From IMG/VR virus record IMGVR_UViG_2713896781_000017: DNA of 4,847 bases, one strand, 5' to 3'. Below, piece by piece: positions 1 through 4,847 of this stretch. Made by a program: the position numbers and the translations under genes. The stretch's first letter is position 1; each line of letters begins with the position of its first letter. The DNA comes from a virus. Lineage: Duplodnaviria; Heunggongvirae; Uroviricota; Caudoviricetes. Below the pieces are notes generated by a model. That model ran no database searches, had not been told where the DNA came from, and worked only from the letters and a program-made list of their open reading frames with translations.

Positions 1-64
1 TTAGTCATCCTGTTTACCTCTTTCTCAGGGAGTTTAGTCTCCAGGATTCCCGGGGCGGTTCAAT

Positions 65-571
65 TTGATTTGCATGACAGTTTCAGGCCTGATCTTTATT
101 TTCCTTTTCTTCTGGTGGCGGGCAGATATTTACAGGGTCACGTTTCTTAATCAGAGTATATCCCACTATTACATTCTGTTTAGCATGGGAATAGCTTTTC
201 TGTTATCTCTGTTTTGGGTTAAGAAGGGGATAGTAAAACAAAGCGGCTGGAAGAGTCTGTCAGCATACCTTAAGGTTTATGCAGGGATGTGCATATTTGC
301 TGGATTTTTTCTGATTATACCCCTTACAACACTAACTTATTTTTTGCCTGGAGAGACATCGTCTTATGTTGCACCGTATCGGTATACTTCCGGTAGTTCA
401 AAAAGTTGTTCTGGAGCTGAGGTGGATGACCCCGATCTACATGAGAATATTCGCATTTGCTATCCGTATGGCAATTATGAGTACGATAATATTATCTATG
501 TTGAAAAGAAAATTAATACATTAGGTGCGGTAGTAACATATGCACAGACCGCGCGTGATGATACTGAATGA
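65..571 (+). CDS. hypothetical small integral membrane protein (three predicted TM helices plus a polar C-terminal domain of about 75 aa); prophage accessory (moron-like) gene
   Basis: Six-frame ORF 65..571. It begins with TTG at 65, preceded by a G-rich stretch GGGGCGG at 52-58; the first ATG is at 74. Three hydrophobic stretches by eye (about residues 4-18, 32-52, 68-94), then a polar tail with two Cys (SKSCSG, RICYPYG). The segment is visibly more AT-rich than the recombination genes to its right and is transcribed opposite to them. No family recognised by eye. Confidence 0.55.
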   Translation: MICMTVSGLIFIFLFFWWRADIYRVTFLNQSISHYYILFSMGIAFLLSLFWVKKGIVKQSGWKSLSAYLKVYAGMCIFAGFFLIIPLTTLTYFLPGETSSYVAPYRYTSGSSKSCSGAEVDDPDLHENIRICYPYGNYEYDNIIYVEKKINTLGAVVTYAQTARDDTE

Positions 572-605
572 GATAGTATATAGCGGGCAAGTTTTAGTTA
601 ATTTA

Positions 606-639
606 TCGAGGTAATATAATTTACCTCGACTCGTTTATT
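606..639 (+). terminator. putative intrinsic terminator downstream of the 65..571 gene
   Basis: Perfect inverted repeat tcgaggtaa (606-614) / ttacctcga (621-629) with loop tataat, followed by ctcgTTTATTc. The T-tract is interrupted and the stem is AT-rich, so this is weak. Confidence 0.3.
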
Positions 640-781
640 CTGGTATTAATATTTCGCTTTACGATCGATTTTTATCTGATGATATCATGCGGTTTTCATA
701 TACTGACTTACTGTCTTTTCTCCGTTAGCGATTTTCTCCTGCTCAGCGATGATTTTATCTTTGGCTTCTAGTTAATTTCGC

Positions 782-1003
782 TCACTTCGAACCTCTCTGT
801 TTACTGATAAGTTCCAGATCCTCCTGGCAACTTGCACAAGTCCGACAACCCTGAACGGCCAGGCGTCTTCGCTCATCTATGGGATCGCCACACTCACAAC
901 AATGAGTGGCAGATATAGCCTGGTGGTTCAGGCGGCGCATTTTTATTGCTGTGTTGCGCTGTAATTCTTCAATTTCTGATGCTGAATCAATGATGTCTGC
1001 CAT
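782..1003 (-). CDS. TraR/DksA-family C4 zinc-finger protein, 73 aa (lambda Orf73-like)
   Basis: ORF 782..1003. The translation contains C-x2-C-x17-C-x2-C (CCEC...GCRTCASC), the spacing seen in F-plasmid TraR, and has the same 73-aa length. In-frame TAA lies immediately upstream of the ATG at 1003. Confidence 0.8.
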   Translation of the reverse strand: MADIIDSASEIEELQRNTAIKMRRLNHQAISATHCCECGDPIDERRRLAVQGCRTCASCQEDLELISKQRGSK

Positions 1004-1028
1004 CTTCCATTAATCCCTGAATTGTTGG

Positions 1029-1057
1029 TTAATACGCTTGAGGGTGAATGCGAACAA
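1029..1057 (-). promoter_or_regulatory. candidate sigma70-like promoter for the TraR-like gene
   Basis: On the minus strand: TTGTTC (plus 1052-1057), a 17-nt spacer, then TATTAA (plus 1029-1034), about 25 nt upstream of the ATG at 1003. The match to consensus is weak. Confidence 0.2.
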
Positions 1058-1082
1058 TAAAAAAGGAGCCTGTAGCTCCCTG
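1058..1082 (-). terminator. putative intrinsic terminator after the 1102..1383 ORF
   Basis: Minus-strand RNA forms GGAGC-UACAG-GCUCC (plus 1065-1079), extendable by G-U/A-U pairs, followed directly by UUUUUUAUUGUU (plus 1064-1053). It lies about 25 nt past the stop at 1102-1104. Confidence 0.45.
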
Positions 1083-1101
1083 ATGATTTTGCTTTTCATG
1101 C

Positions 1102-1383
1102 TCACCGTTCCTTAAAGACGCCGTTTAACATGCCGATCGCCAGGCTTAAATGAGTCGGTGTGAATCCCATCAGCGTTACCGTTTCGCGGTGCTTCTTCAG
1201 TACGCTACGGCAAATGTCATCGACGTTTTTATCCGGAAACTGCTGTCTGGCTTTTTTGATTTCAGAATTAGCCTGACGGGCAATACTGCGAAGGGCGTTT
1301 TCTTGCTGAGGTGTCATTGAACAAGTCCCATGTCGGCAAGCATAAGCACACAGAATATGAAGCCCGCTGCCAGAAAAATGCAT
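1102..1383 (-). CDS. hypothetical protein in the early-left operon (position of lambda orf61); start uncertain (ATG 1383 or internal ATG 1317 giving 71 aa)
   Basis: Six-frame ORF 1102..1383, same strand as and adjacent to orf63. The C-terminal 71 aa (MTPQQENALRSIARQ...) look like a lambdoid early-region small protein. The ATG at 1383 directly follows an in-frame TGA (TGAATG). No convincing Shine-Dalgarno at either start. Confidence 0.5.
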   Translation of the reverse strand: MHFSGSGLHILCAYACRHGTCSMTPQQENALRSIARQANSEIKKARQQFPDKNVDDICRSVLKKHRETVTLMGFTPTHLSLAIGMLNGVFKER

Positions 1384-1393
1384 TCAGTGGTTG

Positions 1394-1585
1394 TCATACC
1401 AGGTCTCTCTCATCTGCTTCTGCTTTCGCCACCATCATTTCCAGCTTTTGCGAAAGGGATGTGGCTAACGTATGAAATTCTTCGTCTGTTTCTACTGGTA
1501 TTGGCACAAACCTGACTCCAATTTGAGCAAGGCTATGTGCCATCTCAATACTCGTTCTTAACTCAACAGGAGATGCTTTGTGCAT
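1394..1585 (-). CDS. lambda Orf63-like small protein (63 aa)
   Basis: ORF 1394..1585; translation [23 protein letters not shown]... matches my memory of lambda orf63. It overlaps orf60a by 28 nt, as in lambda. Confidence 0.8.
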   Translation of the reverse strand: MHKASPVELRTSIEMAHSLAQIGVRFVPIPVETDEEFHTLATSLSQKLEMMVAKAEADERDLV

Positions 1586-1740
1586 ATCGCCTCCCGTTTA
1601 TTATTTATCTCCTCAGCCAGCCGCTGGGCTTTCAGCGGATTTCGGATAACAGAAAGGCCGGGAAATACCCAGCCTCGCTTCGTAACGGAGTAGACGAAAG
1701 TGATCGTGCCTACGCGGATATTATCGTGAGGATGCTTCAT
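1558..1740 (-). CDS. lambda Orf60a-like small protein (60 aa)
   Basis: Track ORF 1558..1746; the likely start is the second Met (ATG 1740..1738), which overlaps the exo stop as ATGA. Translation [31 protein letters not shown]... matches lambda orf60a from memory. Confidence 0.8.
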
Positions 1741-2417
1741 CGCCATTGCTCCCCAAATACAAAACCAATTTCAGCCAGTGCCTCGTCCATTTTTTCGATG
1801 AACTCCGGCACCATCTCGTCAAAACCCGCCATGTACTTTTCATCCCGCTCAACCACGACATAATGCAGGCCTTCACGCTTCATACGCGGGTCATAGTTGG
1901 CAAAGTACCAGGCATCTTTTCGCGTCACCCACATGCTGTACTGCACCTGGGCCATGTAAGCCGACTTTATGGCCTCGAAACCACCGAGCCTGAACTTCAT
2001 GAAATCCCGGGAGGTAAACGGGCATTTCAGCTCAAGGCCGTTGCCGTCACTGCATAAACCATCGGGAGAGCAGGCGGTGCGCATACTTTCGTCGCGATAG
2101 ATGATCGGGGATTCAGTAACATTCACGCCGGAAGTGAATTCAAACAGGGTTCTGGCGTCGTTCTCGTACTGTTTTCCCCAGGCCAGCGCCTTAGCATTAA
2201 CTTCCGGAGCCACACCGGTGCAAACCTCAGCCAGCAGGGTGTGGAAGTAGGACATTTTCATGTCAGGCCACTTCTTTCCTGAGCGGGGCTTTGCTATCAC
2301 GTTGTGAACTTCTGAAGCGGTGATGACGCCGAGCCGTAATTTGTGCCATGCATCATCCCCCTGTTCGACAGCTCTCACGTCGATCCCGGTACGCTGCAGG
2401 ATAATGTCCGGTGTCAT
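1737..2417 (-). CDS. exo: lambda exonuclease (Red-alpha, 5'-3' dsDNA exonuclease), 226 aa
   Basis: ORF 1737..2417; translation [40 protein letters not shown]... is essentially lambda Exo. Its start overlaps the bet stop (tcat at 2414-2417 gives ATGA). Confidence 0.97.
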
Positions 2418-3199
2418 GCTGCCACCTTCTGCTCAGTGGCTTTCTGTTTCAGGAATCCAAGAGCTTTCACTGCTTCGGCCTGTGTCAGTTCTGACGATGC
2501 GCGAATGTCGCGGCGAAATATCTGGGAACAGAGCGGCAATAAGTCGTCATCCCATGTTTTATCCAGGGCGATTAGCAGAGTGTTAATCTCCTGCATGGTT
2601 TCATCGTTAACCGGAGTGATGTCGCGTTCCGGCTGGCGTTCTGCAGTGTATGCAGTATTTTCGACAATGCGCTCGGCTTCATCCTTGTCATAGATACCAG
2701 CAAATCCGAAGGCCAGACGGGCACACTGAATCATGGCTTTATGCCGTAACATCCGTTTAGGATGCGACTGCCACGGCCCCGTGATTTCTCTGCCTTCGCG
2801 GGTTTTGAATGGTTCGCGGCGGCATTCATCCATCCATTCGGTAACGCAGATCGGATGATTACGGTCCTTGCGGTAAATCCGGCATGTACAGGATTCATTG
2901 TCCTGCTCAAAGTCCATGCCATCAAACTGCTGGTTTTCATTGATGATGCGGGACCAGCCATCAACGCCCACCACCGGAACGATGCCGTTCTGCTTATCAG
3001 GGAAGGCGTAAATTTCTTTCGTCCACGGATTAAGGCCGTACTGGTTGGCGACGATCAACAATGCGATGAACTGCGCATCGCTGGCATCGCCTTTAAATGC
3101 CGTCTGGCGAAGAGTGGTGATCAGTTCCTGTGGGTCGACAGAATCCATGCCGACACGTTCAGCCAGCTTCCCTGCCAGCGTTGCGAGTGCTGTACTCAT
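2414..3199 (-). CDS. bet: Red-beta single-strand annealing protein (Bet), 261 aa
   Basis: ORF 2414..3199; translation [37 protein letters not shown]... is essentially lambda Bet. AGAGG Shine-Dalgarno upstream of the ATG at 3199. Confidence 0.97.
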
Positions 3200-3204
3200 C
3201 CGTT

Positions 3205-3621
3205 TTATACCTCTGAATCAATATCAACCTGATGGTGAGCAATGGTTTCAACCATGTACCGGATGTGTTCTGCCATGCGCTCCTGAAACTCAACATCGTC
3301 ATCAAACGCACGGGTAATGGCTTTTTTGCTGGCCCCGTGGCGTTGCAAATGACCGATGCATAGCGATTCAAACAGGTGCTGGGGCAGGCCTTTTTCCATG
3401 TCGTCTGCCAGTTCTGCCTCTTTCTCTTCACGGGCTATCTGCTGGTAGTGACGCGCCCAGCTCTGAGCCTCAAGACGATCCTGAATGTAATAAGCGTTCA
3501 TGGCCGAACTCCTGAAATAGCTGTGAAAATATCGCCCGCGAAATGCCGGGCTGATTAGGAAAACAGGAAAGGGGGTTAGTGAATGCTTTTGCTTGATCTC
3601 AGTTTCAGTATTAATATCCAT
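3205..3621 (-). CDS. gam: Gam, RecBCD inhibitor (138-aa long form; internal start at 3501 would give the 98-aa short form)
   Basis: ORF 3205..3621; translation [32 protein letters not shown]... is lambda Gam. The internal Met41 (ATG 3501..3499) is preceded by AGGAG, whereas the ATG at 3621 has no obvious Shine-Dalgarno. Confidence 0.95.
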
Positions 3622-3719
3622 TTTTTATAAGCGTCGACGGCCTCACGAAACATCTTTTCATCGCCAATAAAAGTGGCGATAGTGAATTTAGTCTGGATAG
3701 CCATAATTGTTTGATCCAT
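3576..3719 (-). CDS. kil: Kil, host cell-division (FtsZ) inhibitor, 47 aa
   Basis: Internal Met of the 3576..3845 track ORF: [47 protein letters not shown] matches lambda Kil. AGGAG sits 9 nt upstream of the ATG at 3719. It overlaps the cIII 3' end and the gam 5' end, as in lambda. Confidence 0.9.
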
Positions 3720-3852
3720 TTTTTGGGACTCCTGGCTGATTAAGTATGTCGATAAGGCGTTTCCATCCGTCACGTAATTTACGGGTGATTCGTTCAAGTA
3801 AAGATTCGGAAGGGCAGCCAGCAACAGGCCACCCTGCAATGGCATATTGCAT
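3688..3852 (-). CDS. cIII: cIII, inhibitor of FtsH-mediated cII degradation, 54 aa
   Basis: Not in the track (below its size cutoff). Manual translation of the minus strand from ATG 3852..3850 gives [54 protein letters not shown], ending at TAA 3690..3688. AAGGAG lies 6 nt upstream. Confidence 0.9.
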   Translation of the reverse strand: MQYAIAGWPVAGCPSESLLERITRKLRDGWKRLIDILNQPGVPKNGSNNYGYPD

Positions 3853-3900
3853 GGTGTGCTCCTTATTTATACATAACGAAAAACGCCTCGAGTGAAGCGT
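3853..3900 (-). promoter_or_regulatory. cIII leader: Shine-Dalgarno plus upstream stem-loop with U-tract (terminator-like; possible translational-control structure)
   Basis: Minus-strand RNA: 7-bp stem ACGCUUC/GAGGCGU with loop ACUC (plus 3883-3900), then UUUU (plus 3879-3882), then AAGGAG (plus 3859-3864) and the ATG. Confidence 0.4.
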
Positions 3901-3924
3901 AATTGGTATGCGGTAACGCCGCGC

Positions 3925-4079
3925 TCAGGCGGCCTTGATAGTCATATCATCTGAATCAAATATTTCTGATGTATCGATATCGGTAATTCTTATTCCTTCA
4001 CTACCATCCATTGGAGGCCATCCTTCCTGACCATTTCCATCATTCCAGTCGAACTCACACACAACACCATATGCATTTA
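3925..4079 (-). pseudogene. ea10: ea10 3' remnant (last ~51 codons), truncated by IS1 insertion
   Basis: Minus-strand translation from the IS1 boundary reads ...NAYGVVCEFDWNDGNGQEGWPPMDGSEGIRITDIDTSEIFDSDDMTIKAA then TGA (3927..3925), matching my memory of the lambda Ea10 C-terminus. The 5' part of the gene is missing and IS1 begins at 4080. Confidence 0.75.
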
Positions 4080-4102
4080 GGTGATGCTGCCAACTTACTG
4101 AT
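4080..4102. repeat. IS1 left terminal inverted repeat
   Basis: GGTGATGCTGCCAACTTACTGAT; imperfect inverse match to 4825-4847. Confidence 0.85.
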
Positions 4103-4134
4103 TTAGTGTATGATGGTGTTTTTGAGGTGCTCCA

Positions 4135-4410
4135 GTGGCTTCTGTTTCTATCAGCTGTCCCTCCTGTTCAGCTACTGACGGGGTGGTGCGTAACGGCAAA
4201 AGCACTGCCGGACATCAGCGCTATCTCTGCTCTCACTGCCGTAAAACATGGCAACTGCAGTTCACTTACACCGCTTCTCAACCCGGTACGCACCAGAAAA
4301 TCATTGATATGGCCATGAATGGCGTTGGATGCCGGGCAACCGCCCGCATTATGGGCGTTGGCCTCAACACGATTTTCCGCCATTTAAAAAACTCAGGCCG
4401 CAGTCGGTAA
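4135..4410 (+). CDS. insA: IS1 InsA (transposition repressor / DNA-binding N-terminal part of the transposase), 91 aa
   Basis: ORF 4135..4410; translation [40 protein letters not shown]... is IS1 InsA with its zinc-finger Cys motif. Confidence 0.95.
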
Positions 4411-4832
4411 CCTCGCGCATACAGCAGGGCAGTGACGTCATCGTCTGCGCGGAAATGGACGAACAGTGGGGCTATGTCGGGGCTAAATCGCGCCAGCGCT
4501 GGCTGTTTTACGCGTATGACAGGCTCCGGAAGATGGTTGTTGCGCACGTATTCGGTGAACGCACTATGGCGACGCTGGGGCGTCTTATGAGCCTGCTGTC
4601 ACCCTTTGACGTGGTGATATGGATGACGGATGGCTGGCCGCTGTATGAATCCCGCCTGAAGGGAAAGCTGCACGTAATCAGCAAGCGATATACGCAGCGA
4701 ATTGAGCGGCATAACCTGAATCTGAGGCAGCACCTGGCACGGCTGGGACGGAAGTCGCTGTCGTTCTCAAAATCGGTGGAGCTGCATGACAAAGTCATCG
4801 GGCATTATCTGAACATAAAACACTATCAATAA
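4329..4832 (+). CDS. insB: IS1 InsB reading frame (167 aa as conventionally annotated; expressed as the InsAB' fusion transposase by -1 frameshifting)
   Basis: ORF 4329..4832 in the -1 frame relative to insA; translation ...[72 protein letters not shown] is IS1 InsB. Confidence 0.9.
4384..4394 (+). other. IS1 programmed -1 ribosomal frameshift site (A6C slippery motif)
   Basis: TTAAAAAACTC at 4384-4394, near the end of insA and inside the insA/insB overlap; the insB frame is -1 relative to insA. Confidence 0.8.
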
Positions 4833-4847
4833 GTTGGAGTCATTACC
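4825..4847. repeat. IS1 right terminal inverted repeat
   Basis: ATCAATAAGTTGGAGTCATTACC; reverse complement GGTAATGACTCCAACTTATTGAT resembles the left repeat. Confidence 0.85.

Follow-up and report, generated by a model that had tools for sequence, protein, structure and literature searches.

The stretch of DNA analysed here, a window of 4847 bases, ends in a complete IS1 element that interrupts the lambdoid gene ea10. The arrangement is best read as a simple IS1 insertion in ea10 of a decaying 434-like prophage, a single neutral hit that creates no regulatory device and leaves the genes of the pL operon expressible through N read-through (probability about 85%). On this reading, an IS1 element already present in the E. 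coli O145 lineage transposed into codon 72-74 of ea10, the target being a prophage at the lambda attachment site, duplicating 9 bp (ATGCATTTA) and removing nothing. The gene is thereby split into an N-terminal stub of 75 amino acids and an untranslatable 3' remnant of 155 nt. Transcripts from pL would enter IS1 at its right terminal inverted repeat (IRR), antisense to insAB. In the absence of N, a stretch of roughly 930 nt in these transcripts would stay untranslated, and Rho would cause polarity. Once the prophage is induced, polymerase modified by N at nutL should pass through IS1, so that expression of cIII, kil, gam, bet, and exo would continue. We infer that the sole certain functional loss caused by the insertion is the non-essential Ea10. 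An IS1 insertion in ea10 is an ordinary event of a thoroughly known kind. It adds one case to the IS1 insertions documented in prophages, here in an attaching-and-effacing strain of E. coli O145, and in itself matters little.

The window is identical to the entire draft contig LEAC01000118.1 (GCA_001309835.1; locus L006). LEAC00000000 is the assembly of E. coli O145:NM PARC449, an eae-positive, stx-negative strain (PMC4563881). The contig ends in repeats on both sides, with 62 bp of IS629 at the left and IS1 at the right, and it stops on the final base of IS1. The first-pass annotation had placed the right junction outside the window, and this is so because the window is a whole draft contig broken at repeats. 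IS1 explains the position at which the contig ends in this draft assembly, and the case is an example of how sister assemblies can complete draft contigs bounded by repeats. The features of the window are collected in Table 1.

Table 1. Features of the 4847-base window (positions are those of the window; strand as +, -, or. for none).
Feature	Position	Strand	Basis or remark
IS629 end (IS3 family)	1..62	-	window departs from phage 434 exactly at 62/63
exo	1737..2417	-	open ORF; phage 434 annotation
bet	2414..3199	-	open ORF; phage 434 annotation
gam	3205..3501	-	open ORF; phage 434 annotation
kil	3576..3719	-	open ORF; phage 434 annotation
cIII	3688..3852	-	ORF and phage 434 annotation; first intact gene downstream of IS1
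cIII mRNA thermoregulator (Lambda_thermo)	3807..3865	-	Rfam RF01804, 88.5 bits
Terminator-like hairpin and T-run	3883..3900	-	between ea10 and cIII; consensus scan only
ea10 3' remnant, 155 nt	3925..4079	-	equals phage 434 L001 6863..7017 with 1 substitution
Promoter-like site across the junction	4066..4093	-	consensus scan; points towards cIII
Target-site duplication ATGCATTTA, left copy, 9 bp	4071..4079	.	right copy directly past the contig end
IS1, complete, IS1B-type variant	4080..4847	+	768 bp; transposase genes point away from cIII
IS1 left terminal inverted repeat (IRL)	4080..4102	+	inverted-pair search
insA, 91 aa	4135..4410	+	open ORF; Pfam Zn_ribbon_InsA and HTH_Tnp_IS1
insB' frame, 167 aa	4329..4832	+	open ORF; Pfam DDE_Tnp_IS1, E = 1e-77
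Frameshift motif TTAAAAAAC (A6C)	4384..4392	+	IS1 position 305
IS1 right terminal inverted repeat (IRR)	4825..4847	+	inverted-pair search; reaches the contig end

Between the two insertion sequences, the window is almost pure phage 434. Positions 63..4079 align with OL657226 (27354..31370) with 2 mismatches in 4017 nt, an identity of 99.95%; the two substitutions lie at window 2735 and window 3965. The first is the one mismatch found in kil-gam-bet-exo (1737..3719), the genes downstream of IS1 in the pL operon. The thermoregulator in the cIII mRNA is intact, so cIII keeps its own translational control element. The remaining content consists of a truncated homologue of CPT_434_36 (a membrane protein), a TraR/DksA zinc-finger gene, and several small ORFs. 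The window itself spans only the part of the prophage from the membrane-protein gene to ea10. The wider relation to phage 434, whose genome has been announced (PMC9119081), is seen in a sister assembly, locus L004 (GCA_900450275.1 UASG01000011.1), a 1-Mb contig annotated as E. coli. There the order exo-bet-gam-kil-cIII-ea10-Nun-like-N-pL-hex-cI is collinear with that of phage 434 (OL657226), and near-identity extends to the 434 immunity region (cI, hex, cro, oL), which marks the element as a 434-like lambdoid prophage. It occupies the lambda attachment site, with int and xis adjoining the pectinesterase gene ybhC.

In phage 434, ea10 is a gene of 369 nt (L001 6863..7231, minus strand), annotated as similar to lambda P68658. 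Its product is a DUF2528 protein (lambda ea10, 'ssb') annotated as a putative ssDNA-binding protein. The remnant in the window encodes Ea10 residues from about 73 to 122 and the stop codon, and aligns with positions 59-104 of the 104 positions of Pfam DUF2528 (PF10800; E = 7e-19); the N-terminal stub on the far side of IS1 aligns with positions 1-57 of the same family (E = 2e-23). Both halves fit Ea10/DUF2528, as does their place in the pL operon, with cIII on one side and the N-proximal genes on the other. The substitution at window 3965 changes Gly110 of Ea10 to Glu. The 155-bp 3' remnant abutting IS1 was thus correctly recognized from the window alone, since it matches the end of the 434 gene and the C-terminal half of the domain. 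That the length of the remnant cannot be divided by 3 has no bearing on whether the insertion is intragenic; the matter is decided by comparison with an intact ea10, and here the sister assembly confirms that the insertion is intragenic, with the 5' 223 nt of the gene beyond IS1.

The predicted inactivation of ea10 is borne out by the structure of both pieces. The stub is 75 amino acids long, 74 of them Ea10 residues followed by a Trp, and its stop lies two codons into IS1; this junction-specific product, listed as SPX30444.1, is on record on 5 contigs. The remnant has no promoter-proximal start and no in-frame ATG. The earliest start that it could use is a GTG at 4062, and a look-up of the product of the resulting 45-aa ORF gave no record. 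Plaque formation by lambda requires N but neither ea10 nor any other gene of the pL operon (PMC10695390).

The inserted element is a complete IS1 with both terminal repeats, as had been proposed, on the evidence of the repeats, the alignment with K-12 copies, the ORFs, and the Pfam domains, all three of which score far above their cut-offs. The terminal inverted repeats are 23 nt long and imperfect (78% complementary), as is usual for IS1 (GGTGATGCTGCCAACTTACTGAT ...), and are the same as the termini of IS1A, IS1B, and IS1C of K-12. A -1 frameshift at TTAAAAAAC joins insA to insB' to give the InsAB' transposase of 232 amino acids, and the 232-aa fusion is called in L004. Against IS1A of MG1655 (K-12), the alignment is free of gaps, with 8 substitutions, and InsA differs by one residue (F81L). 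IS1B and IS1C of K-12 differ from the element by 5 nt, with InsA identical and 3 residues different in the InsB frame; IS1F of K-12 differs by 76 nt. No nucleotide and no residue separates the element from the wcaM copy of E. coli O145:H28 RM12761 / RM13516. That this IS1 is identical to another copy of the lineage argues for a recent insertion within the O145 lineage. The suspicion of the first-pass annotation that the isoform differs from an IS1 copy of K-12 therefore holds with respect to IS1A, and the variant is of the IS1B type, which is unremarkable.

Judged by these comparisons, the element is the lineage's own IS1B-type variant, with nothing structurally unusual about it. IS1B and IS1C of K-12 and the wcaM copy share with it the length of 768 bp, the termini, insA, insB', the A6C motif, and the 9-bp duplication. 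Intact ORFs and ends, along with an identical copy elsewhere in the lineage, hint that it may be competent for transposition. The wcaM copy (L014 7001..7768, in RM12761) interrupts a colanic-acid gene and adjoins the O145 O-antigen cluster.

The right junction is supplied by sister assemblies. The whole window is found in L004 at 9928..14774 with zero mismatches over 4847 bases, and L004 then continues past the end of the contig, reading ...CACCATATGCATTTA / IS1 / ATGCATTTAAGTCGCTTGAAATTGC... The 9-bp sequence ATGCATTTA stands on both sides of IS1; the right copy is followed by AGTCGC... and the 5' 223 nt of ea10. A second assembly (GCA_000948465.1) agrees, with the right junction on one contig, also reading ATGCATTTA AGTCGC... 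(L016, JXVW01000216.1), and the left junction, as in the window, on another (L007, JXVW01000214.1). Phage 434 and L005, a Logan contig of the same prophage, have the empty site: both carry CACCATATGCATTTAAGTCGC uninterrupted, with ATGCATTTA present once. Beyond IS1, L004 carries the 5' part of ea10, a gene for a Nun-like protein of 289 amino acids, N, hex, cI, cro, cII, and O, and this side is collinear with phage 434 at 99.87% identity over 3010 nt. The 9-bp duplication and the collinear 5' part of ea10 in the sister assemblies mean that the event was a simple transposition and not a deletion. In PARC449, the sequence expected to the right of the IS1 right end is ATGCATTTAAGTCGC. Extension to the right, which had been suggested from the window alone, has thus recovered both the target duplication and the rest of ea10 in L004 and L016.

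An exact 40-nt junction pattern has no match in a collection of species-representative genomes; the strains concerned are not among the representatives. A megablast search with the junction region did not find the junction in 5,426 complete E. coli genomes; it returned 7 places with at least 80% coverage, and in these IS1 lies elsewhere, in ral or directly beside cIII. In the phage collection, no record spans the junction.

What the insertion does to the genes behind it can be read in more than one way. The first-pass annotation held that IS1 cuts the operon from its promoter side and probably attenuates cIII-kil-gam-bet-exo. In its strongest form, this would make the polarity of IS1 a step of domestication that disconnects these genes from pL and silences kil and the Red genes. 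The insA and insB genes run opposite to pL transcription, and the element lies ~1.6 kb downstream of N/nutL and 227 bp upstream of cIII. Between the stop of the stub and cIII, roughly 930 nt of RNA would be untranslated, a condition under which Rho-dependent polarity arises. The antisense IS1 RNA includes ~200 nt that are moderately rich in C and poor in G, with a C/G ratio of 1.4-1.7, a profile taken here to stand for a possible Rho loading site. The prophage bears other inactivating IS insertions, and Rho-dependent terminators have been predicted in IS1A (PMC8595720).

Against this, a consensus scan for promoters and terminators found no hairpin resembling an intrinsic terminator inside IS1 on the minus strand, the one transcribed from pL, and the C-rich stretch is only mildly so, too little to be decisive. 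Any polarity would therefore be Rho-dependent, and it is this kind that N acts upon. In L004, N, nutL, and the pL -10 element lie upstream of IS1 and match phage 434 exactly; to the right of IS1, differences from 434 occur only in the Nun-like gene and around oL2. Moreover, pL is repressed in the lysogen, so polarity would matter only after induction, when N is made.

Antitermination of the lambda N type is the classical release of Rho-dependent polarity induced by insertion sequences. Adhya, Gottesman and de Crombrugghe (1974) and Tomich and Friedman (1977) reportedly found that N antitermination relieves such polarity. The classical polar insertions include lambda r14 (IS1) and r32 (IS2) in the cII region and the IS1 and IS2 insertions in gal. 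There, as in ea10, the insertion sequence sits within an operon read by a polymerase that N can modify, with polarity expected when N is lacking and relief when it is present. They differ in being laboratory mutants selected for a phenotype, whereas the IS1 in ea10 is natural and lies in a dispensable gene. With N and nutL intact and N antitermination able to overcome IS polarity, cIII-kil-gam-bet-exo are expected to be expressible after induction. Strong silencing of the operon is accordingly unlikely, and the polar effect was probably overstated; it is the weakest part of the earlier interpretation. Some residual polarity could arise if the C-rich antisense stretch serves as a Rho loading site. 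The case is a reminder that polarity arguments drawn from insertion sequences are not directly transferable to operons under an N-antiterminated polymerase.

A gain of function is the opposite possibility. The left end of IS1 and the ea10 remnant might together form a CI-independent hybrid promoter directed at cIII-kil-gam-bet-exo, with low constitutive expression resembling sbcA. On the minus strand, the junction is straddled by a candidate -35 element, TTGGCA, inside IRL, a 16-nt spacer, and a candidate -10 element, TATGGT, in the ea10 remnant. There is precedent for this, since the 5' terminus of IS1 can supply half of a promoter (Steinrueck and Guet 2017, PMC5526668). The site resembles the known IS1 hybrid promoters in that IRL, the 5' terminus, likewise faces the downstream genes and a -10-like hexamer is suitably spaced in the flank. 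It differs from them in its weak consensus match and in the terminator-like hairpin that stands before the first intact gene. IS1-generated hybrid promoters are also said to have been described by Prentki et al. in 1986.

The match itself amounts to 9 of 12 consensus positions with a 16-nt spacer, and the number of such sites in the region is not above chance (3 found, 2.2 expected). By our own calculation, a chance -10 of this kind would be met in an estimated 5-10% of cases. The terminator-like hairpin and T-run at 3900..3883 lie between the site and cIII, and transcripts begun at the junction would be without nutL, so they could not be antiterminated. A functional promoter at the junction is for these reasons very unlikely. 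If it existed, it would be a natural, IS-made analogue of the sbcA activation of Rac recET in a replication-dead prophage, and the host would be domesticating the Red recombination genes through a junction promoter.

Less probable still is that IS1 is the breakpoint of an IS1-mediated deletion or rearrangement, with DNA to its right that is not the rest of ea10. The window alone is compatible with such an origin, since it ends at the end of IS1, and other E. coli, such as ATCC 8739, have IS1 beside cIII with unrelated DNA beyond. In L004 and L016, however, a direct 9-bp duplication is followed on the far side by uninterrupted 434 sequence, and L004 matches all 4847 bases of the window. An origin by deletion was rejected on the target duplication and the three concordant assemblies. 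The same two grounds dispose of a chimeric contig, in which a collapsed IS1 consensus was joined to an ea10 fragment: repeats at both contig ends are typical of short-read assemblies, but the junction recurs in three independent assemblies, one of which runs through IS1 and two IS629 copies on a 1-Mb contig, and the 9-bp duplication is the mark that IS1 leaves when it transposes, so that an artefact is barely conceivable.

With the simple insertion in ea10 as the preferred reading, the state of the prophage as a whole depends more on its other insertion sequences. Compared with phage 434, the O145 prophage has IS1 in ea10, IS629 in CPT_434_36, and IS629 in O. These three insertion sequences fall within about 12 kb, and the gene O, hit by one of them, is essential for replication. 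The first IS629 copy (L004 8680..9989) is 1310 bp long, contains ORFs of 108 and 295 amino acids, is flanked by a 3-bp duplication of 434 sequence, and is 99.6% identical to the annotated IS629 of phage JLK-2012. It interrupts CPT_434_36 and removes its first ~20 codons; the remaining ORF (74..571) is called as a protein of 165 amino acids. The second copy (L004 18765..20074) splits O into pieces of 88 and 198 amino acids. The interruption of O probably leaves the whole prophage defective, the predicted defect being one of replication. The description of a decaying prophage is consequently supported, mainly by the IS629 in O and not by IS1. The laboratory phage 434 thus has a close relative in nature that survives in O145 as an IS-ridden prophage.

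Further differences are seen in L004. A partial IS629-like sequence, roughly 95% identical, lies outside the prophage on the ybhH (PrpF) side (L004 1..896), and the region around the prophage is dense in IS elements. Compared with phage 434, the prophage is without ~430 bp that include the hypothetical gene CPT_434_33 (L004 8161..8170; L001 2054..2484), which is either a deletion or a mosaic difference. Near oL2 (L004 16648..16667; L001 8882..8900), the annotated CI-binding site oL2 carries a T-to-G change, 1 nt is inserted directly behind it, and the spacer between oL2 and oL3 differs at one base. These are the sole departures from phage 434 near pL, and they could alter repressor binding or cooperativity at oL.

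The hits from the search of 5,426 genomes place IS1 in the short interval from N to cIII in other E. coli prophages as well. E. coli 2023CK-01509 carries three IS1 copies in and around ral (L002 4952..7993), and in ATCC 8739 and O104:H4 strains IS1 stands directly beside cIII, with unrelated DNA beyond. In lambdoid pL operons, the part between N and cIII may repeatedly be hit by IS1 or serve as the endpoint of deletions.
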